The notes: generated by a model from the sequence alone, not told the origin. A stretch of 64,000 bases of DNA from a virus (IMGVR_UViG_3300022666_000111); one strand, 5' to 3'. Numbered from the stretch's first letter, positions 1,668 to 63,569 are shown. A program made the numbers and translations.

Positions 1668-1856
1668 ATGAGCATCCGAGCTACCCTCGAGCTGGCCCAA
1701 AAGCTCCGCGAGCTTATCGAGAAATCGCGCCAGGACGCCTCCCTTGTGAAGGCTGAAAAGGAAGCCTCCCTTGTGGAAGCAAAACGCAAGCTCGATGAGC
1801 CCAAGGACGCCCTTGACCAGCTAAGAGACGCCGACCTCTTCGAGGAGGACCCATGA
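1668..1856 (+). CDS. hypothetical protein with acidic C-terminal motif
   Basis: ATG at 1668 after AGGTGG; ends KDALDQLRDADLFEEDP; overlaps next gene (ATGA). Confidence 0.6.
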   Translation: MSIRATLELAQKLRELIEKSRQDASLVKAEKEASLVEAKRKLDEPKDALDQLRDADLFEEDP

Positions 1857-2287
1857 ACCCCTGCTTTCACGACCACGGCCGCGTGGGCTTCTTCAACGAG
1901 CGCAAGAACCTCAAGGTCCACCTCACCGCCGACCTACGCCCAACCAACGGACCCCAATTCTTGAACCTTCGCGAAAGCGAAGCCCGCGCCTTGGTCAACC
2001 GCGCACGCGCCCTCTACCCCAACTACGTCATCCACGTCGTATGGTCCTCCAACGTCATCATCGACAGCATAGCCTATGACTTCACACGTGAACGAGATCT
2101 GCAACTTCACCTCTTCATGAGCGACCGCTTCGGAGGCAACCTGACGCCCCCTGACTGGATGCGTGAACCCGGCGCCCCAACCGTCACACGTGAACCCGTA
2201 GCCAAGGCTCCAAGCCCACGCAAGCTGCCCCCAGAACCCAAAGAGGTTGACGCCTTCACCATGCTCATGGAGGACGACTTCCTGTGA
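1853..2287 (+). CDS. hypothetical protein, local paralog family
   Basis: shares HVvW...LxLF...PPxW pattern with the next two genes; ends DAFTMLMEDDFL. Confidence 0.7.
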   Translation: MNPCFHDHGRVGFFNERKNLKVHLTADLRPTNGPQFLNLRESEARALVNRARALYPNYVIHVVWSSNVIIDSIAYDFTRERDLQLHLFMSDRFGGNLTPPDWMREPGAPTVTREPVAKAPSPRKLPPEPKEVDAFTMLMEDDFL

Positions 2288-2922
2288 GCGCGGCGACCGT
2301 TACCTATGCCAATGACGGTTTGGTCAAGGGCACCTACGGCTACCTTGACCAAACCGGCAAAGCGTCCCCTTGCCTACGCTGGTCAAAAGAGCTGAACCCA
2401 AGACAAGCCCAAATCCGCGTCGCAGCCCTGGCCAAGAAACTCGAGTCACACGCCTGCCTTCACGTGCTGTGGCGTACACACCCCCTCTGCGACACTATGC
2501 TCACCCTGGCCTTCGTCAAAACCGCCCAACCCCAAGACGGGGATAGCCCACCTTGGACCGAAGCCATCGGCGAACCCAAAGCGTCATACCGTCACGTGAA
2601 AGGTAACCCAGCCTTCCCAGAAGGCGTCCAAGGCGACTACGCCTTCCTCGGCCCCAACGGTGGACGCTCAAGACACCTACACTGGTCCGAATCCCTTACG
2701 CCCACCAAAGCCTACCAACGCGTCGCCTTGGTCAGCGCGGAACGTACCTCGCCCGACCTTCACGTGCTGTGGCGCTACTCGCCCCTACGCCCAGGCCGCG
2801 TAGACCTCGCCTTCCTTGCCGTAACCCAAGCCCAGGAAAGCACGCTCCCACCTTGGATGCCCCGTGTCAAAAGACCCAAACGTGACTTCTTCGACATCTT
2901 GACCGAGGACGATATCCTATGA
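2284..2922 (+). CDS. hypothetical protein with two tandem copies of the paralog domain
   Basis: internal duplication (LxWSxxLxP...RVA...LHVLWR...LAF...PPW twice); ends RDFFDILTEDDIL. Confidence 0.75.
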   Translation: MSAATVTYANDGLVKGTYGYLDQTGKASPCLRWSKELNPRQAQIRVAALAKKLESHACLHVLWRTHPLCDTMLTLAFVKTAQPQDGDSPPWTEAIGEPKASYRHVKGNPAFPEGVQGDYAFLGPNGGRSRHLHWSESLTPTKAYQRVALVSAERTSPDLHVLWRYSPLRPGRVDLAFLAVTQAQESTLPPWMPRVKRPKRDFFDILTEDDIL

Positions 2923-3527
2923 GCCACCTGGTCTTCGCCAATACACGCACGCGCAGAACGCCCCCGGCCCAAACCAAAATCCAAGCCGCCTCCCTCGGCA
3001 GCTCATACGAGGCCGCTACTACCGCCGTCCTGCGCGCCGTGCGGGACAACATGGGCCAAGACTTCTACATCCCGTGGAAAGAACTACGCCGCGACGTCAT
3101 CTGGTACGAAATCCGCCGCTTCACCCGAGACGCCCCCGAAAGTAGCAGCCCCTTCCCCGACTGGTTCACTCATAAGCAAACCGTGAGCTACGAAGAAACC
3201 GATCTCAATATCCACCCCAACGGTATGCACCCCATCGTCCAAGCCGCCCCACCAGGCTATACCTTCGCCGACCACGTCCGCGCTGGAGCCGCTTGGACCA
3301 TCACCTTGAACCATACCGTCGCCATGGAACACATACGGAGAGCCGCCGAATTCGTCGCCCCTCTCAACCTCTACGTCCGCTGGATGCCTTGGCGCTGGGG
3401 CGTCCGCCTCGCCCTCTTCAAAACCGTCCAACCTATCCCCATAACGCCCCTCCCACCCTGGGCCGGAGGCGACGCCCCCACACAACGCGACTTCTTCGAC
3501 CTCTTGACCGAGGACAATACCCTGTGA
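2919..3527 (+). CDS. hypothetical protein, local paralog family
   Basis: LYVRW...LALFKTVQP...LPPW; ends RDFFDLLTEDNTL. Confidence 0.7.
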   Translation: MSHLVFANTRTRRTPPAQTKIQAASLGSSYEAATTAVLRAVRDNMGQDFYIPWKELRRDVIWYEIRRFTRDAPESSSPFPDWFTHKQTVSYEETDLNIHPNGMHPIVQAAPPGYTFADHVRAGAAWTITLNHTVAMEHIRRAAEFVAPLNLYVRWMPWRWGVRLALFKTVQPIPITPLPPWAGGDAPTQRDFFDLLTEDNTL

Positions 3528-4021
3528 GCCCACAAGGCTACGTCTTCATCGAATACAAACCTCCTCATGGAAAGCGACACGTGAAAAGCGTTACCTCGGT
3601 TCTCCGAAGCGTCATCTTCATGCTCAAGCCCCGTGTGGTGAACGTCAACCCCAAGGACGTCCCAGCCATCCGCCGCCAACGCTGGTTCGAGGTCAACACC
3701 CACAACGCTACCAACTACGGCCACGTGGGCTACGCCCTACAAACGCGAATCTACGCCAATACCACCGTCCCAAGAGGTCACGTCCACGGGGATACACGCC
3801 CTCAACCCCTAACCCAAGCCCAACGCGCCCTCCTAGAACGCGGCGTCGACGACGAAGCCCTCGCACACTACAAGAGCATCGCCCTACGCCAATGCGTCAA
3901 CCTCGGCTACGCCATACGTACACGCCCAGGAGGCTTCTACCGAACTACCCCAGCCGGTTGCCACGCCATCCAAACCTTCCCCGACGCCTACGCCAAACTC
4001 CTCTCCGGTGTAGACCTCTAA
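3524..4021 (+). CDS. hypothetical protein
   Basis: GTGA overlap with previous stop; ends DAYAKLLSGVDL. Confidence 0.6.
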   Translation: MSPQGYVFIEYKPPHGKRHVKSVTSVLRSVIFMLKPRVVNVNPKDVPAIRRQRWFEVNTHNATNYGHVGYALQTRIYANTTVPRGHVHGDTRPQPLTQAQRALLERGVDDEALAHYKSIALRQCVNLGYAIRTRPGGFYRTTPAGCHAIQTFPDAYAKLLSGVDL

Positions 4022-4022
4022 C

Positions 4023-4478
4023 ATGCCAACCCTCATCGCCGAATTCGCCTTCACCAAACAAGGCCAACACTGCATCACCCTCAACCGCCCACCCGTTACC
4101 CCTACGCCCGGTATGCACCTCAAAGCACAAACCGGCGAACAGGCAACCGTCCTCTCCGTCGAACGTATGCAGAAGGCTACAGGCCCAGGCAATAACTGGG
4201 TCCTCACCCTCACTCAACCCCTCCCAGCCAATACACCCCTAGAGGCTACACCAGCCCAACGCCCCGAAACAGGCCCTATGGCTTTCGGTTCCGACTGGCC
4301 AGGCGTCTTCATCCGAGGCGATAACGCCCTCGCCTATACCCTAGCCCTCCAAAACGCCCTCAACCAAGACCCCGACAACCTCGAACTACGCTCCCTCCTG
4401 AGCTTGCTCTCCTCCTGCCAATGCCCCGCACCCACTACCGTACACCTCAACCCCTTCACCGAATGCTTGCCCAAATGA
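4023..4478 (+). CDS. hypothetical protein
   Basis: 151-aa ORF with GGTGTAG motif 9 nt upstream. Confidence 0.6.
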   Translation: MPTLIAEFAFTKQGQHCITLNRPPVTPTPGMHLKAQTGEQATVLSVERMQKATGPGNNWVLTLTQPLPANTPLEATPAQRPETGPMAFGSDWPGVFIRGDNALAYTLALQNALNQDPDNLELRSLLSLLSSCQCPAPTTVHLNPFTECLPK

Positions 4479-4666
4479 ACTACCTCATCGTCCGTACACA
4501 CGAGAACGGCGAAGTGTCCCTCCAGTACGCCGCTACCCTACGCGACCTGGAAACCCTCGCCAACGAAGACCCCAACCCCAACAACCCCACCGTGAGCATC
4601 CAACGCTACGCCCTCCTCCCCTAACGATTCCAGTTGATCCCCCACCCCCTCACGCATGTAGCCACC

Positions 4667-7385: not shown

Positions 7386-7907
7386 CTATGCGTCTGGATC
7401 GGTGGGATCAATTGGGAGGGGTTCGATTTCGAGAGGGGTTGTAGGGTTTAGGGGTGGTTCGGGTGCGGAGTGGTTGTCGTCGCGGAGCTTGTCGAAGAGG
7501 GTGGGGCCTTGGGGAGGTTCGGGGCCTTGTTGGACGAGGCGGCTTGAGATGATATCGTCGTCGGTGAGGGGCGTATCCGAAAGGCAGAGGCAGAGGTTTC
7601 TATCGGGGTCCCGGACGGTGAAGAAGAGGTTGCCGGTTTTCTGGACGACGAAGACGTCGCCGGTTCTAGCGTAGCGGAACCATTCGATGGGGCGTTCTTC
7701 GTGGCACCAGAGGTAGCGGAAGATGGGGTAGCCTATGGGGGGGACGAGGCTCCAGACGTTGCCGTAGGGTTCGTCGGGGGCGAAGAACTCAATGGAGAGG
7801 CAGCCGTTGGGTTCGAGGTCTTCGAGGATACGGGCGAGGGAGAGGGGCTTTAGTCGTGCCCACCATTGGCCTTTTCTTGGTGTGAAGTCGACGTCTGAGA
7901 TATGCAC
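7386..7907 (-). CDS. hypothetical protein
   Basis: 173-aa ORF; PTLFDKLRDD near C-terminus. Confidence 0.6.
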   Translation of the reverse strand: MHISDVDFTPRKGQWWARLKPLSLARILEDLEPNGCLSIEFFAPDEPYGNVWSLVPPIGYPIFRYLWCHEERPIEWFRYARTGDVFVVQKTGNLFFTVRDPDRNLCLCLSDTPLTDDDIISSRLVQQGPEPPQGPTLFDKLRDDNHSAPEPPLNPTTPLEIEPLPIDPTDPDA

Positions 7908-7915
7908 GTAGGGGT

Positions 7916-10211: not shown

Positions 10212-10904
10212 CTAGAAAAGGTCTTCGTCCATGAGCTTGTCGTAAGCGGTGTGGACGGGGTCGGCGGTCATCCGCGTTGGGGCGACGATCGCGTAGTTCC
10301 AATCGTTGTACAATTCGGGGAGGGCGACCTGGATGAATTCGGGCTCGTTATGAGGGTACGGGCTTCGGGGGAGCCCGAGCGTAACCACGGGGATACGGGC
10401 CATCCTTCCGGGGGCTTCTTCGATGGTGCTTAGGGATGCCACAATCCTGTAAGACTTGCGCATATCCGGGGGCGCCCAGATTTGACCCTCTTCGACGGTG
10501 TGGCAGAGCACGCATTCGTAGTAGAGGTGCTGCTCCTGCGGATCGTCGTAGGACGACGCGAGGTTGCGTCGTTGGAGGTTGTAGCCCTCCCCGTAATGCA
10601 CGCCGACGCCGATGCGGGGTTTCATGAGGTGGATGACGCCTTCGGAATCCCGAAGCCAGCATTCCTTCGTGATCGGCTTTCTGGGGTCAAAGCTAACGTG
10701 CCCCTCATAGACCCAGCCCCGGGCGCCTACGAGAATGAAGCCTCTCCGGAGGTCCGTATTCGAGACACGGACCTCGATGAGGTCACCAATAGGCTCGGGG
10801 CCGAGGATCTGTAGGGTAGCCTGGTCGACGGTGACGAAGTCGATGTCGTGCGACTTGTTTTGGTCGTAGATGTTGAGGATCCGGTGCCGGAGGGTCTTTC
10901 TCAC
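10212..10904 (-). CDS. hypothetical protein
   Basis: 230-aa ORF coupled to the CCA gene; ends TAYDKLMDEDLF. Confidence 0.65.
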   Translation of the reverse strand: MRKTLRHRILNIYDQNKSHDIDFVTVDQATLQILGPEPIGDLIEVRVSNTDLRRGFILVGARGWVYEGHVSFDPRKPITKECWLRDSEGVIHLMKPRIGVGVHYGEGYNLQRRNLASSYDDPQEQHLYYECVLCHTVEEGQIWAPPDMRKSYRIVASLSTIEEAPGRMARIPVVTLGLPRSPYPHNEPEFIQVALPELYNDWNYAIVAPTRMTADPVHTAYDKLMDEDLF

Positions 10905-20357: not shown

Positions 20358-20729
20358 TCAAGCGTCATCCTCCTCAAGAAGGTTCCAGGCGTCTTTGGGC
20401 TTAGGCATATCTGCTGCTGCCTGTTCAAGCTGAGCAAGGATCTCAAGATCAATCTCGTACGCGATCTGCTGGGCTGCCGTGAGCGGTCTTGGAGGCGGGG
20501 GCGGTGGCTCGGGTCGCATCCGAAAGGGCTCCTCATCCTTGAGGCGATCGAAGATGTCGGAGTCGTCTCGGATGAAGCTGAACAGGACCGGGAAGACGGA
20601 TGTGCACCAGGCGGTTGCGTCACCCTCAAGGAAGACGTGCTCAGCGTCCACGGAAACGACCGTAGCCTCGGGAGGACGCCCCTCGGGGTACTTGCGGAGC
20701 CAGACTTGCCCTGGGCGCACGTCAGTCAT
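20358..20729 (-). CDS. hypothetical protein with GxxW small domain
   Basis: RPGQVW; DIFDRLKDEE and KDAWNLLEEDDA motifs. Confidence 0.6.
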   Translation of the reverse strand: MTDVRPGQVWLRKYPEGRPPEATVVSVDAEHVFLEGDATAWCTSVFPVLFSFIRDDSDIFDRLKDEEPFRMRPEPPPPPPRPLTAAQQIAYEIDLEILAQLEQAAADMPKPKDAWNLLEEDDA

Positions 20730-21672
20730 CGTCATCCATGAGGCGGTCGAAGATGTCACGGGGTTCTACCGTAGGCTGCGGCGGTGCGATCCGTTGGAAG
20801 CCGACAAGCGGGACCTGTGTGAAGGGCGCCGCTCCCGGTGGACGCTCTATCGGGGTCTCCTCAAAGCGGTTCGTCTCCCCATTGTAGGCCATGACGATCT
20901 CAGCTCCGTCGAGAGCGGCCCACCCTAACGCCGTGTAGCGACACACGATTCCAAGCTCGTTGATGCGCGCACGCTGCCCGAGGCGCGGCTGAGTGAATGA
21001 CCACGCCCCTCTCCAGAAGGTCACAATATCGTCAGGGTGGTCATACCAGGCGCCGGACGGGTTGCCGCTTACAATGTAAGTGACCCCCTCAGATGGTTCA
21101 GGTGGGGGATCGTCCCGGAACGCGGAGACTTGGAGGGTGGTGCATTGTCCCGGCTCATGGGGCTCAAAGCAGATGGGACATAGCTGCATCTGAACGCTGG
21201 TCCCCATCGAGACGCCGTGGACTTGACCACGCTGGATCTGGTCTCGGATCTCGCGAGGGACCTCAAGGGTCACGTCGCCGAAAGGCGTGGTGGCGCGCAC
21301 GACGTCCTCAATGGTGAACCTATCAAGGAAGTTGTGGAGCTGGTACGAGATGGTTGTCGCACGGTCGTCATTGTCGGCTCTTCTGATTGTGATAGTGCTC
21401 CCGTCGTCTCTGTCGACAACCACGAGGGTGTCATCCGTGTTGCTGCGAAATTGACGCCCTGTTAGCTGGGCCAGGTAGCTGTACCAGAAGAAGAACTCCT
21501 CAAGCGGGATGATCCAGTGTCGATCCGGGGTCGCCCCGAATTGCATGATCGTGACGTTCGTATCACTCCGGGCTAGAATCAAGGCGACTGCTGGAGTGTC
21601 TTGTGCGGCGATGACTCGGGTTGCTGTGTTGAGAATCCAGCGTTCACCGATCTGCGGGTCACGTACCGGCAT
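20722..21672 (-). CDS. multidomain protein with DUF2793-like segment
   Basis: PPPEPSEGVTYIVSGNPSGAWYDH...GAWSFTQPRLG resembles DUF2793; ends RDIFDRLMDDDD. Confidence 0.65.
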   Translation of the reverse strand: MPVRDPQIGERWILNTATRVIAAQDTPAVALILARSDTNVTIMQFGATPDRHWIIPLEEFFFWYSYLAQLTGRQFRSNTDDTLVVVDRDDGSTITIRRADNDDRATTISYQLHNFLDRFTIEDVVRATTPFGDVTLEVPREIRDQIQRGQVHGVSMGTSVQMQLCPICFEPHEPGQCTTLQVSAFRDDPPPEPSEGVTYIVSGNPSGAWYDHPDDIVTFWRGAWSFTQPRLGQRARINELGIVCRYTALGWAALDGAEIVMAYNGETNRFEETPIERPPGAAPFTQVPLVGFQRIAPPQPTVEPRDIFDRLMDDDD

Positions 21673-23208
21673 TTAGTCCCCCCACCCAAACGGGTCCTCG
21701 TTAGCAAGTCGTTCGAATGCGTCCTTTCGCTCCACACGCTTCCACGTGCCGCCCTCAAGAAATGCCCTGGCGGAGGCTTGCACACGGATGCCGTTTGAAT
21801 CCTCGAGGGTGGCTATGCCCAGAGCAGGGTCAAGGAGGGCGACCGTGTAGCTCACTCCCTTTTGGTCAATCCACTCTTCACCCACGTGGCATTCAAGAGG
21901 AATCACGCGTTCTTCAACTTGCGTGTAGTTACGCCACAAGTCTGGGATCAGCATCCGTAAGATGTGCCCGTCAGCGTTACGGACGGCCACGTGGCGCATC
22001 CCTTCGACGACGTCCGAATCGGTGATGACCACGAGGGCTCCATTGCCTCGGCACACCCAAATGCTTCCGATTGGCGGGGCAGCTTCCTCGTCGAACCGGA
22101 TGTAGTCACGCACGAAGGCCATGAGCGGGATGGTCCCCGGGGTTCCAGCCTCGTCCGTGACGTTGACTTGACAAGGGGCGCCCAAGCCTTGACCGTGCCC
22201 GTTCACTGTGATGAAGGAGCCGTCCGATCGGGGGTTCCTCCACATAGAGCCGCTTGGTGGCGCCACGTCGGCGATAGGCCGGAAGCCACGCTCGAAGTCC
22301 TCCTGGGTGACGACGATCCTTTCCGAACCTACGTGGTGCCCTACGCGGTCAAGGATACGCCCGGAGCCTCCGAAGGAATGATGCGCATAGGCGACGTAGT
22401 CCGTGAGGCGAATGAATTGATCGCCTTGAGGCATGGTGATGTTCGTCGTATTGGCAGCGACGATCGTTACGGGGCCTGGGCTGACTATGACGGGGAGCCC
22501 AGCGAACATACGCCCGCCGCCATGAACGGTCCCTCTTGTGACGAGCGTACGCATCCCCCCGCTATCATGCAGGGGGATCTGGCTGTTATCCAAGACGACA
22601 AGGTTGCACGTGGATTCGTCCATGCGAACGAAGGTAGCGTTGCGGCCGTTGACCCGTAGGCGACGGCGCGCTTGGGAGACGGCGTCCCCCATACGCTGCA
22701 TCGGGACTGAGCTATCAAGGGTCTGCCATTGGGCCTGGCATTGGGGGCACGTTGAGCGGACGCCCTCAAGGTGTGATCCGCAAGACGGGCAAGAAGAAAG
22801 GTTCGGTCCTGGAGGGAACTCCTCCCGAGAGGCAGCAGCGGCTATGCCCGGGATCACCGTTGACGTGGGATCGTCCCCGGGGAAGTACGTAGGCTGGTTG
22901 ATGGAGATGTGCCGGTGACAGACCCTCCGTATGACGCCCTGAACGGACTGCCGCAAGAAGGAGACCTCTTGGCAGCCTTGTGCTTCACAGAGCTGGATCT
23001 CTCCTTCTTGGGGTATGGGCGTGATTCGCGCGAGCCGCCACATGTGAAGCATGGACCGGATGGGCATACTTGTGCTGCGGCCCGTTTGTGAAATAAGAAG
23101 AGCAGTGTCACCGTCCGAGGATATCGCGGCGACACAACCGAGCATCGTGTTACCCTCGAACGATTGTGTACTCCAGACCTCACCACGGACAGGGTTATCA
23201 GCAGGCAT
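21673..23208 (-). CDS. multidomain protein with repeated GxxW beta-domains and Zn fingers
   Basis: RGEVW, SGSMW, IGSIW and VGEEW repeats; CxxC pairs. Confidence 0.7.
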   Translation of the reverse strand: MPADNPVRGEVWSTQSFEGNTMLGCVAAISSDGDTALLISQTGRSTSMPIRSMLHMWRLARITPIPQEGEIQLCEAQGCQEVSFLRQSVQGVIRRVCHRHISINQPTYFPGDDPTSTVIPGIAAAASREEFPPGPNLSSCPSCGSHLEGVRSTCPQCQAQWQTLDSSVPMQRMGDAVSQARRRLRVNGRNATFVRMDESTCNLVVLDNSQIPLHDSGGMRTLVTRGTVHGGGRMFAGLPVIVSPGPVTIVAANTTNITMPQGDQFIRLTDYVAYAHHSFGGSGRILDRVGHHVGSERIVVTQEDFERGFRPIADVAPPSGSMWRNPRSDGSFITVNGHGQGLGAPCQVNVTDEAGTPGTIPLMAFVRDYIRFDEEAAPPIGSIWVCRGNGALVVITDSDVVEGMRHVAVRNADGHILRMLIPDLWRNYTQVEERVIPLECHVGEEWIDQKGVSYTVALLDPALGIATLEDSNGIRVQASARAFLEGGTWKRVERKDAFERLANEDPFGWGD

Positions 23209-26233: not shown

Positions 26234-26643
26234 TGCCGACACCCGTCACAGTAGGTAGCCTCTGGGAGAATCCACACTTCCCAGGCGTGGTCTACGAGGT
26301 AATCGATACAACCGAAGAGGACATGTACGGGTACCCTTACATCACGATCCGAAACAACGGGAGGGTGTCGGCCGTAGACGCTACACAATTCCGGGAGGAC
26401 TTCGCTCCCATTGAGGATGAGATGGCACGGGAAGAGCAGACGGCGTTCGATAGGCTCATGGCGGACGACATCTTGCCCGAGCCCACGGGCAAGGATGCTG
26501 GGCTGGTCTCCAGCGTCACGGTCGAGACGGTCGGGAGTCATGACGTTGTGCGGGTTTGGAACCGAGGCGGGTTGGCGGGGATGCTGACGGTCTGCAAGGG
26601 GGACGGCGATGCCTTGCGTCAGAGGTTGCTTGGCAGATCCTGA
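26233..26643 (+). CDS. hypothetical protein with GxxW domain
   Basis: VGSLW; internal TAFDRLMADDIL. Confidence 0.6.
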   Translation: MPTPVTVGSLWENPHFPGVVYEVIDTTEEDMYGYPYITIRNNGRVSAVDATQFREDFAPIEDEMAREEQTAFDRLMADDILPEPTGKDAGLVSSVTVETVGSHDVVRVWNRGGLAGMLTVCKGDGDALRQRLLGRS

Positions 26644-26853
26644 CGCCGTGTGCGCCCGGTGTGGGGCAGCCGAGGGCATTCAGCTTGAGGATGCCAGGAC
26701 GGAGTATGCTCAACCCGAGCCTGACTTCTTCGACCACCTCATAGGGGAGCCTCCTCCGGATCCGAATGCGCCCGTCCCCTTGTGTCGGGCTTGCGCTGAG
26801 GAGCACCATGAATTCTGGGATGCAATGTGGCAGGACTACTATGAGGGTAGGCT

Positions 26854-34169: not shown

Positions 34170-34799
34170 TCAGGTTTCGTCTTTGAGGTGGTCGAAGAAG
34201 TCAGGTGGCGGTCTGAGGTCTGATTCGTCCGGCGCGTTATCTGTGAAGATCCCTGCCATTGCGTCGAGACGCTGTCGTGTAGTGTCACCAATGTCCCCGG
34301 GCCGTGGCCGAATGCGCACGCGAGGACCAGAAACCGCGTTGGGCGGATCCACGAGAGCTGTCTCGAAGGGGCCTCGAGGCGGGGCAGGGCGTCGGGGCGC
34401 TACCGGGCGCGTCCTTGGACCATCATCGTCCGGGCGCCTTGCCGTCCTGGCTGTACCGAAGCGCATCTCGTTCATGGTAACGTTGGCGTCCGACCGCTCT
34501 CGTGCCCAGGCCCGCCATGTGTCGATGTCAAACTCACGCAATCCGTCGCGGCTCCTAAAGCCGTAGATGCGTTCGGAGTCATGTCTGACGTAGCACCTAT
34601 CGTTTTCAAGCTGCCTCAGCCTTCGGGCGTCGAAGACGTAGAGAAGGCGGATGAGGAAGGACGTGTCAATGACAAGGGCGAAGCCTTGAGAGCCTCCGTT
34701 GAGATAATCCACATAACCGGAGAGGGTGGGGAAGTCGCGATCGGCATCGATCGCGAAGTCAATGTTGTGGAGAGTCGCAAGCTCAACGACGATGGGCAT
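34170..34799 (-). CDS. hypothetical protein
   Basis: 209-aa ORF; ends PDFFDHLKDET. Confidence 0.65.
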   Translation of the reverse strand: MPIVVELATLHNIDFAIDADRDFPTLSGYVDYLNGGSQGFALVIDTSFLIRLLYVFDARRLRQLENDRCYVRHDSERIYGFRSRDGLREFDIDTWRAWARERSDANVTMNEMRFGTARTARRPDDDGPRTRPVAPRRPAPPRGPFETALVDPPNAVSGPRVRIRPRPGDIGDTTRQRLDAMAGIFTDNAPDESDLRPPPDFFDHLKDET

Positions 34800-42618: not shown

Positions 42619-43110
42619 ATGATGCTGGACCCCTTCTACGGTGTCGGGGCACAAGCCCGCGCGATCTTCGCCTTGCTTGCCACCCTCGATCCAGACTTCG
42701 CGACCTTCAAAAAGGGCCAGTACCAGGTCAAGATAAGCACCTGGGTTTGGTACAACGGGCGGGAGAAGGGCATTTGCGTCACGGTTCAGAAAGACTTCAC
42801 CTCCCCGTGCCTCAACCTCACCTTCGGAGAGCATCGCTCAAGCGATAACATCTTCGTGGATTGGTGGGTGACTACGCGGCCCATCTACAACGGCCCCAAG
42901 GTTTCGGACTACCCAGAGGTAGCCTACAAGGCCCGTGAATTCTTCGGCTGCGACAACGTCTACGCGGCGTCTCGACACATCTACGACCTCATGGCGAGCT
43001 TCTACACGCTGGGGGCCGACGAGTTCCTCGAGAAGGCTGGGCGGAAGATCGATGAGATAGTCTCCCCCGAAATCGCGGACGCCTGGGATCACCTTCGAGG
43101 TATGGGTTGA
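42619..43110 (+). CDS. hypothetical protein
   Basis: about 163 aa; ends DAWDHLRGMG. Confidence 0.6.
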   Translation: MMLDPFYGVGAQARAIFALLATLDPDFATFKKGQYQVKISTWVWYNGREKGICVTVQKDFTSPCLNLTFGEHRSSDNIFVDWWVTTRPIYNGPKVSDYPEVAYKAREFFGCDNVYAASRHIYDLMASFYTLGADEFLEKAGRKIDEIVSPEIADAWDHLRGMG

Positions 43111-46991: not shown

Positions 46992-48212
46992 ATGTCTATT
47001 GCCAACCTAATCCACCTGGGCGATTGCCTCGAATACCTGAAATCCCTTCCAGACAACAGCATCGACGCTATCGTGAGCGACCCTCCGTACGGACTTGGTA
47101 CGCGGGAGCCCACGGGCGAAGACATCGACCGCTACCTTGCGGGTGAAGCTGGCCTGAATACAGGCGGCGACTTCATGGGGCACGGTTGGGAGATCCCAAG
47201 CGTCCCAACCTTTCGCGAATGCTTCCGCGTCTTGAAGCCGGGGCGTCACATCTGCTGCTTTGCCGGGACCCGGACCTTTGACCTCATGGCTTGCGGGATG
47301 CTCGCGGCAGGGTTCATCGAGGACGGCGGCCTTGCCCAGAGGTTCGGCCTTCCTATCCTACAGTGGATCCACGGGCAGGGGTTTCCGAAGAGCCTCGATA
47401 TCGCTAAGGCAATCGACAAGCACCTCGGGATCAAGCGTGAAGTCCTTGGGGAGCGGACGGTTATTCAAGGCGGCGGGACGAGCCTTGAGCTTCGGGCCGG
47501 GGAGCGCCGGGAGGTTCAGGTTCAGATCACGTCGGCAACGAGCCCCGAGGCCAAGAAGTGGGAGGGGTGGGGGACGGCTTTGAAGCCTGCCTGGGAGCCG
47601 ATCATCTGCTTGCGTAAGCCGGGTCCAATGCCAGAAGATCTGGTGGCGCCGCGATGGTCGTTCCGTTATTGCCCGAAGATCACTGCGTCGGAAGCGGACG
47701 CGGGTCTCCTGAAAAGCTCCTTCGATCCCAACGAGATCATCGAGAAGAACACGCATCCCACGCGCAAGCCTCTCAAGATCATGGAGTGGATCATCGGGCT
47801 TGCGAGCCGTGAGGATGACATTGTCCTCGACCCGTATTGCGGGAGCGGCACGACATGTGTTGCGTCGATCCTCTTGGGGCGACAATACATTGGATGTGAG
47901 CTGAACCCTGAATTCCACAAGATCGCCTCCGCCCGCGTCAAGCATGCCCTTCAGCAGACCACGGCTGAGCAGCGCAAGCTCTTCCGCCTCATGGAGGGGA
48001 CAGACGATAACGAGACCGAAGACCTGCCTCCGATGCAATCCGAAGTCTTGGTAGCACCGCCTTCGCCCAAGCCAGCGAAGGCCCCCAAGGCAAAGCCCGA
48101 AGCGAAGCCAGAGATCGTGGTTTCCCCGGTTGCCAAGTCAGAGCCTCCGGTTGCCACGGCGCCCCCGGCTGAGCCGAGCCTCTTTGACCTCATGATGGAG
48201 GAGGGGACTTGA
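46992..48212 (+). CDS. DNA N6-A/N4-C methyltransferase (beta class)
   Basis: SDPPY, HPTRKP, VLDPYCGSGTT. Confidence 0.92.
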   Translation: MSIANLIHLGDCLEYLKSLPDNSIDAIVSDPPYGLGTREPTGEDIDRYLAGEAGLNTGGDFMGHGWEIPSVPTFRECFRVLKPGRHICCFAGTRTFDLMACGMLAAGFIEDGGLAQRFGLPILQWIHGQGFPKSLDIAKAIDKHLGIKREVLGERTVIQGGGTSLELRAGERREVQVQITSATSPEAKKWEGWGTALKPAWEPIICLRKPGPMPEDLVAPRWSFRYCPKITASEADAGLLKSSFDPNEIIEKNTHPTRKPLKIMEWIIGLASREDDIVLDPYCGSGTTCVASILLGRQYIGCELNPEFHKIASARVKHALQQTTAEQRKLFRLMEGTDDNETEDLPPMQSEVLVAPPSPKPAKAPKAKPEAKPEIVVSPVAKSEPPVATAPPAEPSLFDLMMEEGT

Positions 48213-49609
48213 TGGAGACCAACGTCATCCTACAAGGAGATTGCCTCGAGGTTCTCAAGACCCTTCCAGACAACTCCGTCGATTCCATTGTGACCGATCC
48301 CCCGGCCGGGATTGAGTTCCTCGGCAAGGATTGGGACAGCTTCAAGCAGGGGCGCCTCGCGAACTACGCAGGGCCTCCTGGGGGCAACGTCAAGCCTCTT
48401 GGAGAGGTTCGTGGCTGGCAAGCATCGCTGCCCAAGATCAGCCAAAGCGCCAATCGGAAGTGCCTCTCTTGCGGGCAGTACAAGTTCAGCCGAACGCCTT
48501 GTACCTGCAAGGTCCCTGATTGGGAGCCTGACTCGAGCGTCCGCGATACCTTCGTCGCCTTCATGCGGGCCGTCTTCACCGAGGCCCTCCGCGTCTTGAA
48601 GCCCGGGGGTCACGCCGTCATCTGGGCCATCCCCCGAACCAGCCATTGGACCGCCTGGGCCGTCGAGGCCGCTGGATTCGAGATTCGTGACGCGGTCTAC
48701 CACATCTTCGCGACAGGGTTTCCCAAGAACTTCAACGTAGCGAAGGCCATCGATGGGATGCTCTTGGGGGAGGCTGCGCCCAAGGACTACCTGGGGTCGG
48801 AGATTGCGAAGCGTTGGGAGGGGTGGGGGACGGCTTTGAAGCCAGCGGTTGAGGTTTGGTGGCTAGCCCGAAAGCCTCTGGCGCAGACGGTGGCCAAGAG
48901 CGTTGTGGAGTTCGGAACGGGGGCGTTGAACATCGACGGTTGCCGTGTTGGGGATCATCAGAATGAAACCCCCGGGGGCTTCTCGAGGATCAATGCTGCG
49001 AACGCGGCTCAAGGCTACCGGCCGAGCGACTACGTCCATGAGGACCCGATGCCCAATCCGAGCGCTCCGGGGCGTTGGCCGCCGAACCTCGCGATTACGC
49101 ACGCAGCGGATTGTGAAGAGGGCCGTTGTGTTGACGATTGCCCTCTCGTCATTTTGGACAAGCAAGCCGGTCGGGGCGTCTCCAAGGAGCAGCTCCCGAG
49201 CTTCTTCTTCGTTCCCAAGCCGGGGCGCGGGGAGAAGGAGTACGGTTTGGACGATCTTCCGGTCAAGGTCATCGGCACGCTTGGCGGCGGGGGCGAGGGT
49301 GCCAACGATCCTGTGAGTCAGCGGTTCACGAAGTTTGCCCGCAACACGCATCCGACCCCAAAGCCCACGACGCTCATGCGGCACCTTGTGCGTCTCGTGA
49401 CGCCTCCTGGAGGTGTAGTCCTTGATCCGTTTGCTGGTAGTGGCACGACTTGCCTTGCGGCGATTGAGGAATCTATGAACTTCGTCGGCATTGAACGTGA
49501 GGACGAGTATATCGCCATTGCTCGCGCCCGGGTCAAGGCTGTGCGTGAGGCCAAGGAATCCGAGGACAACCAGCGCGACCTCTTCGCGCTTGCTATGGAG
49601 GAATCATGA
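48209..49609 (+). CDS. DNA N6-A/N4-C methyltransferase (beta class, DPPA variant)
   Basis: TDPPAG, HPTPKP, VLDPFAGSGTT. Confidence 0.9.
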   Translation: MMETNVILQGDCLEVLKTLPDNSVDSIVTDPPAGIEFLGKDWDSFKQGRLANYAGPPGGNVKPLGEVRGWQASLPKISQSANRKCLSCGQYKFSRTPCTCKVPDWEPDSSVRDTFVAFMRAVFTEALRVLKPGGHAVIWAIPRTSHWTAWAVEAAGFEIRDAVYHIFATGFPKNFNVAKAIDGMLLGEAAPKDYLGSEIAKRWEGWGTALKPAVEVWWLARKPLAQTVAKSVVEFGTGALNIDGCRVGDHQNETPGGFSRINAANAAQGYRPSDYVHEDPMPNPSAPGRWPPNLAITHAADCEEGRCVDDCPLVILDKQAGRGVSKEQLPSFFFVPKPGRGEKEYGLDDLPVKVIGTLGGGGEGANDPVSQRFTKFARNTHPTPKPTTLMRHLVRLVTPPGGVVLDPFAGSGTTCLAAIEESMNFVGIEREDEYIAIARARVKAVREAKESEDNQRDLFALAMEES

Positions 49610-50409
49610 ACGATGACATTCGCGCGGTTCTTGAAGGCCGCGCTATGTGGTGCGTAGTCACCGCAGAGTCTTTGTCGGTCTTGTCCGATTTACCAGACGG
49701 TGCTGCTGACCACATCATCACTGATCCTCCCTATGACGCGCACACGCATGAGAACGCTTCGACTTGGACGAGCGCTACCGGGTGTGCCGTACACATTGAC
49801 ATCGACTTCCCTCCCCTTTCACCTGAGACCGTTGTGGAGTCATTTCTGCGCGTGTCACGCCGGTGGACCCTTGCCTTCTGCTCGTTCGAGATGCTTGGGG
49901 GCTACATCGATGCGGCGGGCAAGGCGTGGATCCGTTGTGGGATCTATCGTCGAACCAACGGGGCACCTCAATTCACGGGGGATCGCCCGGCTCAAGCCGC
50001 CGAGGCTGTAGCGATCCTGCACAACCTCAAGGTCAAAAAGCGGTGGAACGGCGGTGGGCGGTGGGCCTTCTGGGAGAGCCCCGTAGAGAAGGCGGAGCGG
50101 TATCATCCGACGCAGAAGCCCTTGCCTCTTATGATGCAGCTCATTTCGCAATTCACGGATGTGGGGGAGGTCATCTTGGACCCCTTCTGCGGGGCAGGGA
50201 CGACGGGGGTTGCTGCGGTTCGTCAAGGGCGGCGGTTCATTGGGGTTGAGCTTCAGGAGAAGTATGCCGAATCGGCTCGTAAGCGGATCGCGCGAGCGGA
50301 GGAGGAGTACAAGGACGAGGTTGAGCAGAGGCGTCTCTTCGAGGCAGCCATGGCAGCCTCAGAGGAATTTCAACGAGATCTCTACAGCTTGGTCATGTCG
50401 GAGGAATAG
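49606..50409 (+). CDS. DNA N6-A/N4-C methyltransferase (beta class)
   Basis: TDPPY, HPTQKP, ILDPFCGAGTT. Confidence 0.92.
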   Translation: MNDDIRAVLEGRAMWCVVTAESLSVLSDLPDGAADHIITDPPYDAHTHENASTWTSATGCAVHIDIDFPPLSPETVVESFLRVSRRWTLAFCSFEMLGGYIDAAGKAWIRCGIYRRTNGAPQFTGDRPAQAAEAVAILHNLKVKKRWNGGGRWAFWESPVEKAERYHPTQKPLPLMMQLISQFTDVGEVILDPFCGAGTTGVAAVRQGRRFIGVELQEKYAESARKRIARAEEEYKDEVEQRRLFEAAMAASEEFQRDLYSLVMSEE

Positions 50410-50973
50410 ATGGCTGGTAGCCTTCTCACGCAGTCCCTTGTTCGGTTCGTCAATCCGGACGTCCCTGGGTTCCAGGTACCGTTCAACATGCTCGTCAATG
50501 GCGTCAAGTGGTCCTTGGCCACAGACCGTAGCTGTGTGGTTGCCGTCAAGGGGTGGGGGGACTACAAGCAACCCGTCTGGGAGGAGTCACGGCAAGCAAA
50601 TCGCATCGAGGTCTTCACGGCCTACTTGAATGCGACGGTCCCCGAGGGCGCTATCTCGGTGCCCTTGGTGGACCTCGTTACTTGGGCGACGCAGCCGTGC
50701 GAGAACAACTACGTCATTGGGAGGGTCCTTGGCTTGCCGATGGATACACGACGGCTGGCGAAGATCCTCCAAGACCTTCCATTCAAGACGGTTCACATTT
50801 GGGATGCCTCCGAAGTAACGAAAGTCATGTGCCTCGGGATCAGCGCCGGTGGCGGAAGCTGGAAGGCTTTTCTAGCAGGATTTCCTCTCGACGAGGAAGG
50901 TGACACGGCGGATGTCGAAGACTTCGATCCGACGTGTCAGCAGGATATCTTTTCGATCGCGATGTCTAGTTGA
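50410..50973 (+). CDS. hypothetical protein
   Basis: 187-aa ORF with GGAGG RBS; ends QDIFSIAMSS. Confidence 0.65.
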   Translation: MAGSLLTQSLVRFVNPDVPGFQVPFNMLVNGVKWSLATDRSCVVAVKGWGDYKQPVWEESRQANRIEVFTAYLNATVPEGAISVPLVDLVTWATQPCENNYVIGRVLGLPMDTRRLAKILQDLPFKTVHIWDASEVTKVMCLGISAGGGSWKAFLAGFPLDEEGDTADVEDFDPTCQQDIFSIAMSS

Positions 50974-56027: not shown

Positions 56028-56055
56028 CGGTCAAATGGTGTAGATTCCCCTCACC

Positions 56056-58029: not shown

Positions 58030-58860
58030 ATGGCTTTCCCGAATGCGATCCCCGAGCGTGAGCAGTACATCCTCCAGCAGGTCCAAGCGGGTAACTTCGA
58101 AGCCCGATGGTCTTCGATCGTTTCAACCGCAGGGGACCACACGGCCGTCTTCATCGTCATGGCGGATGCCCTCAAGGTTGACGGCGTCCGGGTCAACGTT
58201 TCAGCCAGGCTGGAACAACAGATCGCGGACGTCCTCAACGCCTCGCTCTTGACGCCGAAGCTCGCCGACCTCATTTGGGCACAGCGCCTTGTCGACGTTG
58301 CCCCCAAGCCTCGAGCGATCACGTCCTCAACTCAAGCCATGCTGGCTCAAAGCCAAGCCTTGGACGCCGCCGTAGCGGGGCAGGACGGGCTTGTTTGCAC
58401 GGTAGGGAAGCATTGGGTCATTGACAAAGACCTCGCGGCTCATCCGGGCAAGGCGGAGAACTACGGCTGGCACTTCCACGGCTCGAGCTTTCAAGGGATC
58501 ACCGGAGAGGTTTGCGCCTCCCTCATGAAGGGTCCCAACGGCGCCTACGTCCGGCTCATCCAAGGACGCGGGTGGGCGCATGATATGAGCCACGTTGACT
58601 ACAGCCAGAATTGCGTGCTTGTCGCCAAGCAATGCTGGGTTGACGGCGCTTTGATGAACCTCTCGGACGTCTTGACCAACCCCGACCTTGCCGCCCTGGC
58701 AAGCCACAACGGGGTCACGACGATCCTTCGGCAGCCCGGGGTCGACACACTTGAATCCATCGAGTACGACCTCGTAGCCTTCCCCGAGGGCCTTGCGCTC
58801 TCGTCACCCCCTGACGGATTCCCGCAATGGGTTCTGGACCTTCTCGGCACTTCATGTTGA
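58030..58860 (+). CDS. hypothetical protein
   Basis: 276-aa ORF with GC3-rich codon usage. Confidence 0.75.
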   Translation: MAFPNAIPEREQYILQQVQAGNFEARWSSIVSTAGDHTAVFIVMADALKVDGVRVNVSARLEQQIADVLNASLLTPKLADLIWAQRLVDVAPKPRAITSSTQAMLAQSQALDAAVAGQDGLVCTVGKHWVIDKDLAAHPGKAENYGWHFHGSSFQGITGEVCASLMKGPNGAYVRLIQGRGWAHDMSHVDYSQNCVLVAKQCWVDGALMNLSDVLTNPDLAALASHNGVTTILRQPGVDTLESIEYDLVAFPEGLALSSPPDGFPQWVLDLLGTSC

Positions 58861-59659: not shown

Positions 59660-59899
59660 GCCCCTGCTGCCGGACGGAACCGGCGTCGGAAAACGGAACC
59701 GAAGGCTTAAACGCTATGGCATGACGAAAGTCGACAAGTAGGGTACGGTTGCGGATGCACCGAACAACGCCTCCCCTGGTAACAGGGTGGACCTAGCCGC
59801 AAATTGCCGTTGTAGGGAAGCGCGTTTACCAACCGAACGTCGAGCCCCTGGTAATGCTTGGGTTCATGACTTGTGCGGGTTCGACTCCCGCCAGGGGCG
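59660..59899 (+). ncRNA. 240-nt RNA with tRNA-like ends and a large internal domain
   Basis: GCCCCTG/CAGGGGC acceptor, D-like hairpin, perfect T-arm GCGGG-TTCGACT-CCCGC. Confidence 0.65.
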
Positions 59900-59921
59900 C
59901 TATCCGGTGTAGACGATCGGC

Positions 59922-60350
59922 ATGCCCATTTACTCAAACTTCGACTTGATGCTTCGAGACATGGTGGGCTACATCCGAACCACGGGGACGGAGATTCTTG
60001 CTTCGGACGATCCCAGGCGACAGCTTATCGGTTTCACCGCTTTGATTGGCGAATACCGATGGGAGATTCCGATGCACGCCATGATGGGGACAACGTCCTT
60101 GGACACCAGTGTGCTTCGAACTTCCGCTGGTCGGATGGCTTTGATTCACGCCTTGGCGGTTCAGGCGCGTGAGGGTGTAATACCTGATGCCTCTTACGTG
60201 AGCCCACATGAGCAGTTCCAACGAACGTGGAATGCTAACGCAGCTCCCCTTCAGCTTGACATTGACACCCCAGAGGAAGAGAAGCCCGCTGAGGAGTCTG
60301 GTCGGACGGCATTTGATAGGCTTCTCGACGACGATAACATGGAGCCATAG
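59922..60350 (+). CDS. hypothetical protein
   Basis: GGTGTAG motif upstream; ends TAFDRLLDDDNMEP. Confidence 0.65.
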   Translation: MPIYSNFDLMLRDMVGYIRTTGTEILASDDPRRQLIGFTALIGEYRWEIPMHAMMGTTSLDTSVLRTSAGRMALIHALAVQAREGVIPDASYVSPHEQFQRTWNANAAPLQLDIDTPEEEKPAEESGRTAFDRLLDDDNMEP

Positions 60351-61679: not shown

Positions 61680-62438
61680 ATGCACAACGTCCAGCGTTAC
61701 GGATGGCAACCGGACATCCCAGATTCGCGTGACCGGCTTCACATGGTAGCACGGAGCGTCCTTCGGGCACTTCCGAATACCGTCGACCTCACCGCAGGGT
61801 TCCCTGGTGTTTATGACCAGGGGGACCTCGGGTCTTGCACCGCCAATGCTATCGGCAGCGCCGTCATCTTCGACATCATGTCCCAAGGGCTGCCCGGCTT
61901 CATGCCTTGTCGGCTTCAGATCTACTACGACGAGCGCGTCATTGAGCACACGATCAAGACGGATGCTGGCGCGCAGATTCGTGACGGGATCAAGGTCATT
62001 GCGAAGAATGGTGTGGCCCCCGAAGATCTCTGGCCGTATGACATCGCCAAGTTTGCGAAGAAGCCTCCGCAGAAGGTCTACGACGCCGCGATCAAGCACA
62101 AGGCGGTTCAGTACGAGCGTGTTGCACGCACCGAGGCTCAGCTATGCGGGGCACTTGCAGGCGGACACCCTGTTGTCTTCGGATTCTCGGTCTACGATAG
62201 CTTCGAGAGCGATCGGGTGGCGAAGACGGGCATTGTCAACATGCCCAAGAAGACAGAGAGCCTACTTGGTGGGCACGCGGTTGTCGCGGTCGGGTACAAT
62301 AAGAAGACTCGGCGCTTTCTCATCCGCAATTCTTGGGGGATTGGATGGGGAAAGAAGGGGTACTTCACGATGCCGTTCGACTACCTCTTGGATTCTAACC
62401 TCTCCGATGACTTCTGGGTCATCAAGGTTGTGTCTTGA
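61680..62438 (+). CDS. papain-like cysteine peptidase (C1A)
   Basis: DQGDLGSCTANA, GGHAVVAVGY, RNSWG. Confidence 0.92.
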   Translation: MHNVQRYGWQPDIPDSRDRLHMVARSVLRALPNTVDLTAGFPGVYDQGDLGSCTANAIGSAVIFDIMSQGLPGFMPCRLQIYYDERVIEHTIKTDAGAQIRDGIKVIAKNGVAPEDLWPYDIAKFAKKPPQKVYDAAIKHKAVQYERVARTEAQLCGALAGGHPVVFGFSVYDSFESDRVAKTGIVNMPKKTESLLGGHAVVAVGYNKKTRRFLIRNSWGIGWGKKGYFTMPFDYLLDSNLSDDFWVIKVVS

Positions 62439-62469
62439 TAGCACGTGCCGGAGACACCTCCGGCAGAAT

Positions 62470-62541
62470 GGGGCTTTAGTTCACCCGGGAGAACGCGACC
62501 CTCGCACGGTCGAGAAAGGGGTTCGAATCCCCTAAGCTCCA
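62470..62541 (+). tRNA. tRNA-Ala(CGC)
   Basis: G3:U70 pair; loop CTCGCAC. Confidence 0.88.
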
Positions 62542-62545
62542 CTAT

Positions 62546-62616
62546 GGGCTTGTAGGTCAAGGGGAGACCGGCTGGTTTGCACCCAGCAAATCCGGGTTCG
62601 ATTCCCGGCTTGTCCA
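62546..62616 (+). tRNA. tRNA-Ala(UGC) with mismatched acceptor stem
   Basis: loop TTTGCAC; two U:U pairs in the acceptor. Confidence 0.7.
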
Positions 62617-62696
62617 CTGACACCTTGGTGCCGCGTCGCTTGCACGGCGACCTGTGTAAGAGCCCCCGAAGGGCCGCTTCTCGGTGTCTACTGTTT

Positions 62697-62779
62697 GGGG
62701 CCGTAGCTCACATGGCGGGAGCAACCACCGGAATGATCAACCGGGCGGAAGGGGAAAGGTTCAATTCCTTTCGGCTCCA
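62697..62779 (+). tRNA. tRNA-Ala-like with aberrant anticodon arm
   Basis: GGGGCCG/CGGCTCC-A acceptor; CCGG-AATGATCAA-CCGG. Confidence 0.55.
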
Positions 62780-63149
62780 CCGAAGATGGCCGCAAGTTCA
62801 CGGTCGGAAACGCCCACGTTGTTGGGCGCCGTAGGCTTGCCGATGTCAATTGCTTCGATCGCGCGGGCCTCTTCCTCGGAGAGCCCCATACCATCAAGCT
62901 GCTCAAAGCGCGCCTGACGACGGCAATCAAGAAACACACGGGTCGCAATCTTGCTTTGCTTGACCCCAAAGTAGCTGGATAGGAAGTGTAGGAACCGCTC
63001 GAAGTCCTCCATGAACGCGATGCATTCAGATTCTGGCGCGCCCGTTTGGATTCGAAGCTCTCTAGCTTGCTTGAGCAAACCCTTGTGCATGATAAGACCT
63101 TGCAAGTCGTTCCCTAAGTCTACACCGTCCAGGTGTAGGAGAGGTGGTC

Positions 63150-63569
63150 ATGTCGCGCATACCTAGACGCAAAAGCCGCAAAATCACTGTTGATGGCAAG
63201 CCCTATAGGTGGCTCCTTAAGGGCGGGCGGTCAAGGTATCGCGGCAACAGCGCGGCGTGTTTGACGCTTGTCGTTCAAGAGGACGCTGAGAAGCCTGGCG
63301 ACCCGATCGTCGCGGACTTCGTGTCCATGCGGCTCACGGCGGATATGGACGAGAACTACGGGCCGCCGCACAAGGCGACCTTCTCCCCCGGCGACGTCGC
63401 CAAGGCGATCCGGAAGGCCCTCCAAGAGGGTTGGGAGCCGAGCGTGTCAACGGGCAAGGTGTTCGTCTACAAGGTCGACTTCTCCTTGAGTGACTACGCC
63501 TTCGAACTTCCCAAGGAGAAGCCCCGCCCCCGGGACTACTTCGATAAGCTCCTCGGTGACTTTTTCTAG
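63150..63569 (+). CDS. hypothetical protein
   Basis: RKITVDGKPYRW...PGDVAKAIRKALQEGWEP; ends RDYFDKLLGDFF. Confidence 0.7.
   Translation: MSRIPRRKSRKITVDGKPYRWLLKGGRSRYRGNSAACLTLVVQEDAEKPGDPIVADFVSMRLTADMDENYGPPHKATFSPGDVAKAIRKALQEGWEPSVSTGKVFVYKVDFSLSDYAFELPKEKPRPRDYFDKLLGDFF

Follow-up and report, generated by a model that had tools for sequence, protein, structure and literature searches.

The 64-kb stretch IMGVR_UViG_3300022666_000111 (the window, i. e. the whole of the DNA analysed, 64,000 nucleotides) is a piece of a huge uncultured phage. A gene call by codon usage yields 89 genes at a G+C content of 60%; they encode a CCA-adding enzyme, a Ro60-like TROVE/vWA protein, an ArdC-like protein, two sigma-like proteins, three N6/N4 DNA methylases, a dCTP deaminase and a putative rIIA-like protein, a label of our own based on one tblastn match annotated as RIIA lysis inhibitor. 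No close relative of the window is found among the deposited phages, and neither IMG/VR scans with single window proteins nor one further metagenome scan gave matches; a contig of 341,626 bp holds a protein that is 99% identical to a window protein. The subject of this work is a short acidic-aromatic peptide at or near the C-terminus of about one in six window proteins. The original prediction, made from the DNA alone, had regarded these peptides as one motif on about 20 unrelated proteins that serves as a docking tag for a single hub. Our work reveals that the peptides are enriched at protein ends, that they fall into a main class and a class restricted to a DNA methylase operon, and that in related phages the core of the main class is also present on the partner of the phage actin volactin.

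The main-class tails of the window

The motif of the main class reads hydrophobic-[FWY]-[DE]-[KRH or hydrophobic]-[LI]-x-acidic. It follows a flexible linker and is often trailed by a second unit of the type acid-hydrophobic-aromatic. In the window, the aromatic residue is mostly preceded by Ala or Phe. The window has 14-16 main-class carriers; the tails, with the lengths of the proteins in amino acids (aa), are these:

1806..1835, + strand: main-class tail located 16 aa before the stop of gene 1668-1856 (62 aa); a second acid-L-F unit follows
2249..2278, + strand: tail intermediate between the classes (F-x-M-L-M-acidic), gene 1853-2287 (144 aa)
2884..2913, + strand: main-class tail of gene 2284-2922 (212 aa); tail DNA 96% identical to that of the next gene
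3489..3518, + strand: main-class tail of gene 2919-3527 (202 aa)
3983..4012, + strand: weaker main-class tail of gene 3581-4021 (146 aa)
7473..7502, - strand: main-class motif of gene 7386-7907 (173 aa), 38 aa from the stop; a Pro-rich stretch follows
10221..10250, - strand: main-class tail of gene 10212-10904 (230 aa), which is translationally coupled to the CCA-adding enzyme gene
20364..20393, - strand: C-terminal main-class tail of gene 20358-20735 (125 aa)
20529..20558, - strand: second, internal main-class copy of gene 20358-20735; a poly-Pro linker follows
20728..20757, - strand: main-class tail of gene 20722-21672 (316 aa, DUF2793 domain)
21694..21723, - strand: main-class tail of gene 21673-22701 (start uncertain)
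26440..26469, + strand: internal main-class motif of gene 26287-26643
26723..26752, + strand: internal main-class motif of gene 26630-26857
34173..34202, - strand: main-class tail of gene 34170-34799 (209 aa), behind a long disordered Pro/Arg-rich linker
43078..43107, + strand: main-class tail of gene 42619-43110 (163 aa), with the W-D-H-L core that is also found in three relatives
60306..60335, + strand: main-class tail of gene 59922-60350 (142 aa)
63534..63563, + strand: main-class tail of gene 63261-63569 (102 aa)

The start of gene 21673-22701 is uncertain because 566 codons are open in 21673-23373 (-), with a coding signal for the last 342 only, and the upstream part overlaps the divergent gene 23243-23644.

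All 21 peptides of the original prediction were found again at the places given, the internal copies at 20529-20558, 26440-26469 and 26723-26752 included. The strict pattern [DTS][AFILY][FYW][DESA]x[LIVMA], scored in the last 20 residues, occurs in 14 of the 89 genes as compared to 8 occurrences at 14,335 interior positions (rate ratio 14, Fisher p 5e-9). A comparison with shuffled controls had been proposed together with the prediction: In 2000 shuffles of the whole proteins or of the last 30 residues, the strict pattern was present in 0.55 genes on average and in 5 at most; the observation is confirmed. A count of 6-mers in a reduced alphabet, which presupposes no pattern, gave the same peptide. 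The ten best patterns in the last 20 residues were all pieces of the tail motif, and acid-x-aromatic-acid-x-aliphatic was present in 9 tails with 0.62 expected (p 1.5e-8; 10,627 patterns counted). Moreover, matches at most 16 residues from a stop codon were never located on an open reading frame (ORF) rejected by the gene call when all six frames were scanned.

The carriers are largely independent of each other. When their bodies were compared by BLASTP without the tails, relatedness was limited to the three methylases. The DNA that encodes the tails is dissimilar with a median best 24-nt identity of 58%, the pair 2284-2922 and 2919-3527 (96%) being the exception. The bodies are therefore unrelated as had been claimed, but this pair and the related methylases reduce their number from about 20 to about 17. 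Conservation at the protein level with differing codons, another part of the prediction, is borne out by the dissimilar tail DNA and by the diverged linkers and bodies. A Pro-rich linker was found in about half of the cases but not in the others: in the 25 residues preceding the motif, proline is about twice as frequent as in the background (11% overall versus 5.8%), and hydrophobic residues are few.

Lineage spellings and two classes of tail

Relatives of the window were found via an alignment of the rIIA-like protein, which led to 16 IMG/VR contigs, mostly of 170-416 kb, with 38-50% identity to this protein, and to three distant matches. Five of those contigs were examined in full or nearly so. 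The core was counted as [FWY][DES][KRH][LIV] in the last 16 residues, with the expectation taken from the interior rate:

Window, 64 kb read: mostly F-D-[KRH]-L, 7 versus 0.8 expected
G001, 407 kb: [ST]-R-F-[ED]-R-[IL]-acidic, 17 versus 3.3 expected
G003, 398 kb: T-L-W-D-H-L, 40 versus 4.2 expected
G008, 412 kb: L-F-D-H-L, 9 versus 3.2 expected
G010, 417 kb: L-W-D-H-L, 35 versus 5.9 expected
G005, 221 kb: no tail spelling, 2 versus 1.6 expected
G009, 196 kb: no tail spelling, 0 versus 1.9 expected

Pattern-free searches identified in each tail-bearing genome a tail spelling of its own. The most enriched exact tail 4-mers were WDHL in G003 (19), LWDH in G010 (26) and FDHL in G008; for G001, with the actin partner left out, it was RFER (8 tails, 2 interior, p 5e-13). 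Each relative of about 400 kb has 9-40 tagged genes, which amounts to at most about 8% of its genes with the strict four-residue core and to a larger share with a looser one. The carriers are mostly small soluble orphans, and no homologue of the main-class carriers of the window was detectable in G001 or G003. The original prediction of a phage-wide addressing code stands as far as the kind of element is concerned, and the tag even extends over a phage family; for the main class, however, the hubs that had been named lack evidence, as discussed below. The two relatives that lack volactin, G005 and G009 (about 200 kb, 62% G+C), have poly-Arg C-termini in strong excess, which could be genuine basic tails or else stem from errors of gene calling at high G+C.

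Comparison of orthologues supports the idea that the tails are portable short linear motifs on flexible linkers that can be gained or lost. Two window genes without a tail, 31211-32308 and 58030-58860, have tailed orthologues in G001 (55% and 59% identity, respectively). The sole distant homologue of the carrier 10212-10904 (62% identity) has a tail that is identical save one acidic position, and the five residues preceding it differ. Homologue searches with the carriers 20722-21672 and 2284-2922 led to the same phage only, and a back-translated tail pattern matched in IMG/VR solely at internal sites of unrelated proteins. As judged from these sequence data, the tails very probably are docking tags.

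The single list of the original prediction also held the tails at the gene ends 48212, 49609, 50409 and 50973. These form a distinct class and belong to one operon:

46992..50973, + strand: operon of three N6/N4 DNA methylases (Pfam PF01555) and a 187-aa partner, all with a methylase-class tail
47976..48005, + strand: internal methylase-class copy Q-R-K-L-F-R-L-M in methylase 46992-48212, at the end of the last helix
48177..48206, + strand: methylase-class tail of methylase 46992-48212; the linker that precedes it, about 55 aa, is predicted to be disordered
49577..49606, + strand: methylase-class tail Q-R-D-L-F... of methylase 48212-49609
50332..50406, + strand: methylase 49606-50409 ends in two tandem methylase-class copies, both also present in the L184 orthologue
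50944..50970, + strand: methylase-class tail Q-Q-D-I-F... of the 187-aa partner gene 50410-50973; its G001 orthologue also has a methylase-class tail

The methylase tail has the approximate form [AILV]-[FY]-[DEAS]-hydrophobic-[AMSV]-[ML]-x-acidic, often with Q-x before it. This one form is kept in the window, in L184, L186, G001, G003, G008 and G010, whatever the local spelling of the main class, and it is restricted to the methylases and the adjacent small gene in every genome examined. A matrix derived from 17 non-methylase instances separates the classes as well: the methylase tails score 3.5-9.2 bits and the other carriers 13-23, with 6.9 for the best non-carrier. The boundary is not sharp, which weighs against a clean split, since the tails of gene 1853-2287 and of the homologue P0006 are intermediate. 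The idea of one hub for all tails is contradicted by the methylase operon: unlike the others, its tails are spelled independently of the lineage, and they resemble clamp-binding motifs, thus implying at least two readers. We consider it probable that there are two classes of tail with two readers, each class being a short, helix-prone motif on a flexible linker.

The methylase tail is conserved beyond the window. L184, a metagenome contig of 4 kb, has the same operon of three methylases with the same tails, two of them doubled, and in the more distant relative L186 tails are present on 4 of the 18 genes. The closest methylase homologue (67%) has the same tail despite a difference of 18 residues in linker length. 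P0005, a copy of this homologue with 97% identity, is interrupted by an insertion of about 365 residues that looks like an intein with a homing-endonuclease-like part. The uncultured 485-kb phages LR745208 and LR756508 encode related methylases and have no such tails in the stretches examined. For methylase 46992-48212, AlphaFold2 predicts a confident catalytic domain, a linker with pLDDT values below 50 (residues 337-391) and a short helix on the tail (residues 397-402).

Candidate readers of the tails

The search for core genes with a main-class tail points to the phage actin. The four relatives G001, G003, G008 and G010 have 90 orthogroups in common, and a single one of them has [FWY][DE][KRH][LIV] in the last 10 residues, in all four genomes. 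This is the gene right after volactin (PF25216, E 4e-66), which starts within a few bases of the volactin stop and encodes a protein of 370-400 aa that has no Pfam or PHROG match at significant E-values. The actin partner is thus the sole core carrier, and a hub that had not been considered in the original prediction. Its C-terminus reads G-R-N-x-x-[FY]-E-R-I-x in 41 of the 43 IMG/VR loci with a complete partner, and the remaining two differ by one core residue. In G001, the accessory core F-E-R-I is the very core of the partner, and [FY]ERI tails are found five times, the partner included, with 0.13 expected. Moreover, all eight large relatives tested have volactin, whereas it is missing in the tail-less G005 and G009. 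The relatives thus have an actin gene with an adjacent partner that ends in a conserved peptide, as expected of ParR-type systems. In ParR/CorR, the C-terminal peptide is required for the binding of ParM/CorM (bioRxiv 10.1101/2025.06.27.661541), and the prophage actin AlpC has the adaptor AlpA (PMC4446434).

It is tempting to speculate that the main tail is an address tag by which fast-evolving, lineage-restricted accessory proteins bind one phage-encoded reader, and that the likeliest reader would be the phage's own actin (volactin) system. The tag might dock at the very site by which the invariant [FY]-E-R-I-x end of the volactin partner would be held, in parallel to the ParR-type adaptors that grip ParM-type actins by a C-terminal peptide, and the tagged proteins would then be gathered on, or moved along, phage-built filaments. 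We propose the volactin system tentatively, as a possible reader of the main tail.

Several observations weigh against this proposal. First, the match between partner and accessory proteins comprises four residues and was found by looking through the core genes; by our own rough estimate, the chance of a coincidence is about 1% for the exact match in G001 and much higher for the looser match of residue classes. Second, the accessory spellings in G003, G008 and G010 (W/F-D-H-L) and in the window (mostly F-D-[KRH]-L) are unlike the F-E-R-I of the partner, and the residue class alone is shared with it. Third, kinship confounds the joint lack of volactin and tails in G005 and G009: 165 proteins of G001 have a homologue in G003, and only 10 of these have one in G005 as well. 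Presence or absence in G005 cannot narrow down the reader since too few genes are shared with the other relatives. Finally, the evidence for the volactin partner, as well as that for the clamp, comes from the genomes of the relatives, the window being 64 kb of its genome, and the AlphaFold2 model of the G008 read-through product of volactin and partner, with Trp in place of the in-frame TGA, was of unusable quality (mean pLDDT 37.7). In G008 (L308:11718-13931, -), volactin and its partner are in the same frame with a single TGA between them, whereas the frames are different in G001, G003 and G010; the arrangement in G008 may be due to chance or represent a read-through fusion.

For the methylase tail, a sliding clamp is the candidate reader. 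In the window, the motif consists of Q-[RKQ]-[SD]-[LI]-[FY] followed by hydrophobic-M-acidic, often in two copies, and the tails open with Q-R-D-L-F, Q-R-D-L-Y or Q-Q-D-I-F. Position 4 is L or I and position 5 is F or Y in all seven methylase-class copies; Q is present in five of them, and position 3 is S or D in five and R or K in the two internal copies. Of the 150 best representatives of methylase 46992-48212 among 1.8 billion proteins, 32 have the extended acidic tail and 26 have a terminal Q-x-x-[LM]-F, located in their last 14 residues; the interior rate of this pattern is 1e-5 per residue. The same canonical Q-x-x-[LM]-F endings are found on many IMG/VR relatives and on relatives in bacterial genomes. 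Moreover, both G001 and G003 have a gene for a beta-clamp-like processivity factor (phrog_947, 4.8e-10; PF00712 weak) beside clamp-loader-like genes. A precedent is provided by the MuC and Mor proteins of phage Mu, in which Q-x-[DE]-[LM]-F acts on the host clamp and the Q is dispensable (bioRxiv 10.1101/2025.01.04.631326). The endings of the homologues, the Q-R-D-L-F-type starts in the window, the clamp of the relatives and the Mu precedent lead us to favour, by a little, the idea that the methylase tail binds a clamp. The tail would then be a hook by which DNA methylation is linked to freshly replicated phage DNA loaded with the clamp. A point against this idea is that the family-A polymerase and other core replication proteins of the relatives have no methylase-type tail, so that the clamp would have unusually few clients.

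Could one sliding clamp, be it the beta-like clamp of the phage or that of the host, read all tails as an address for phage DNA? The motif starts with [DST]-hydrophobic-[FYW], which is similar to the [SD]-L-F at the end of the bacterial clamp motif, the consensus is reminiscent of the RB69 polymerase tail, homologous methylases have canonical clamp motifs at the same place, the relatives encode a clamp, and some tails are intermediate between the classes. For the main class, however, the clamp reading fails at the pre-aromatic residue, which in clamp motifs has to be L or M and is mostly Ala or Phe in the window and Arg in G001. Moreover, no core replication protein of the four relatives has the main motif, which argues against the clamp hub of the original prediction, and up to about 40 clients per genome would be unprecedented for a clamp. 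The window tail matrix ranks the clamp-binding tails of RB69 at positions 86, 94 and 131 among 214 RB69 ORFs and thus misses these clamp clients, again to the disadvantage of a clamp. Together with the deviant spelling of the methylase tails this makes a single clamp improbable.

A capsid-loading signal, read by the scaffold, the portal or an inner shell, had been suggested as well: the tagged proteins would be packed and injected with the DNA. Many carriers are indeed small accessory proteins of the kind that is injected, targeting peptides of similar design exist (the T4 capsid targeting sequence, the cargo-loading peptides of encapsulins), and two tailed G001 proteins (339812-340588 and 342822-343634) share a piece of 46-52% identity with the major capsid protein. 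As the tail is absent from all head proteins of the 90 core families, a capsid hub finds no support from the core genome, and we give it little credence. The major capsid protein itself (290 aa) is 92% identical between G001 and G003.

Equally little speaks for a handle by which a phage AAA+ unfoldase, remodeller or protease adaptor would remove or remodel early accessory proteins in a timed manner. In G001, several tailed genes are located beside AAA+ genes, e. g. 363993-364373 by 364366-366621, and there is a cluster around 334376-335488, the product of which has a hyper-acidic tail. This adjacency was observed in one genome, the window has no AAA+ gene, and such a handle leaves unexplained why the volactin partner is the only core protein with the core; acidic tails are not known to be typical bacterial degrons either.

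Far less probable is the absence of any common reader, with convergent acidic amphipathic ends that act in cis (as self-inhibiting DNA mimics or solubility tags) or that were spread by duplication alone. Acidic aromatic tails act in cis in the DNA-binding proteins T7 gp2.5 and T4 gp32, two neighbouring tails in the window are almost the same at the DNA level, and many G003 carriers are paralogous. However, conservation is position-specific on unrelated bodies, the spelling is uniform within a genome and shifts jointly on unrelated carriers between genomes, the codons differ, and tails are gained or lost among orthologues. The least probable of the alternatives is a LIR/AIM-like motif (acidic-[WFY]-x-x-[LIV]) read by a phage ubiquitin-like protein: W-D-H-L or F-D-R-L with acidic flanks fits the Atg8-interaction consensus, but the likeness is one of two fixed residues, and by our own gene calls, which make this a weak test, no small gene ending in Gly-Gly is conserved in the tail-bearing G001, G003, G008 and G010, with none at all in G001. 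The remainder of the probability falls to a reader other than volactin, capsid, AAA+ protein or clamp.

Taken together, the main tail may dock accessory proteins on the phage actin and the methylase tail may dock its carriers on the sliding clamp, a combination that we put forward with reserve. From the motifs, enrichment, conservation, spellings, class split and partner match observed here, we infer every binding step and every cellular outcome of this scheme. Its widest form, in which a clade of uncultured phages of roughly 0.3-0.45 Mb has a proteome-wide address code that is respelled in each lineage, with dozens of fast-evolving accessory proteins that copy the peptide of the actin partner and ride or gather on a volactin cytoskeleton, seems doubtful to us.

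Shared docking peptides are known for a handful of clients per hub, as for sliding clamps, SSB, shells and ParM. In the phages studied here, most of the tagged proteins are orphans, and the spelling of the tag changes from one lineage to the next. Identification of a single reader would provide a handle on the function and location of dozens of uncharacterised proteins at once, as well as a natural, transplantable tag. Given the resemblance to the invariant C-terminus of the volactin partner, the question of the reader is directly testable. If the link to volactin holds, this would be the first bacterial virus that sorts its own proteins on its own actin. As to the methylases, Q-x-x-[LM]-F endings are common on N6/N4 DNA methylases of phages and prophages of many lineages. 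Clamp-type tails on phage DNA methylases, which public data show to be common, suggest a coupling of methylation and replication as a tactic against restriction. In the literature searched, there is no description of clamp-type tails on phage methylases, nor of either shared tail tag.

Other features of the window and comparison with known systems

Two genes of the papain family (Peptidase_C1), 38988-39797 (+) and 61680-62438 (+), are unusual for a phage; both have orthologues in G001. Many operons of the window, several tail-bearing ones among them, are preceded by the element GGTGTAG, which is located 8-10 nt 5' of the start codon so that a ribosome-binding site cannot fit between (examples: 46965-46991, 34800-34825, 7908-7930, 59895-59921, 56030-56055). 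A second element with two boxes, GTTGATC - about 17 nt - GGCATACTAGGG, is found immediately 5' of the ATG of genes with strong codon bias that start at 12247 (-), 14370 (-), 17357 (-), 25350 (-), 27138 (-) and 55629 (+). It is probably a promoter for a phage sigma factor.

Among the known systems, the bacterial beta-clamp motif Q-L-[SD]-L-F is similar to the methylase-class motif Q-[RKQ]-[SD]-[LI]-[FY], which is likewise located at a flexible end and often present in two copies. The methylase-class tails differ from it by the conserved hydrophobic-M-acidic extension, whereas the canonical motif has none, and the main-class tails fail at the key hydrophobic position. The gp45-clamp tails of T4 and RB69 (gp43, gp55, gp33) are also acidic-aromatic C-terminal peptides on unrelated proteins of one phage. 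According to its record, RB69 gp43 ends in K-K-A-S-L-F-D-M-F-D-F, of which S-L-F-D-M-F-D-F looks like the tail of methylase 46992-48212. The tail of gp55 was also confirmed from the record, and for both proteins the likeness to the window tails is at the level of the consensus only. The clamp of the relatives is beta-like rather than gp45-like, and the gp45 motif marks three or four proteins as compared to dozens here. A T4-type likeness of the main class was dropped because the window matrix does not recover the clamp clients of RB69. One of the two best RB69 matches to this matrix is the single-strand-binding protein of gene 32 (L204:46057-46956, -) with the acidic end D-L-D-D-L-L-A-G-L.

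Peptides that target proteins to shells, i. e. the T4 capsid targeting sequence and those of encapsulins and microcompartments, are likewise portable linker peptides on unrelated cargo. They have other sequences and known readers in the shell or scaffold, whereas here no head protein carries or obviously reads the tag. The C-terminal tip of SSB, an acidic run up to I-P-F, and the tails of T7 gp2.5 and gp4 share with several window tails, which end in acid-L-F or similar, an acidic run followed by a hydrophobic or aromatic end. In our phages, however, this terminal unit is optional and does not necessarily form the last residues, as can be seen for gene 1668-1856 and P0002, and the conserved part is the upstream aromatic-acid-basic-aliphatic core.

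Finally, the ParR/CorR-ParM/CorM systems resemble the volactin locus, where the protein encoded next to the phage actin has a short invariant peptide at its C-terminus. In that family, docking of cargo on the actin-like filament via the terminal peptide is the established mode. The actin described here belongs to the volactin family, and the re-use of such a peptide on dozens of other proteins would be new.

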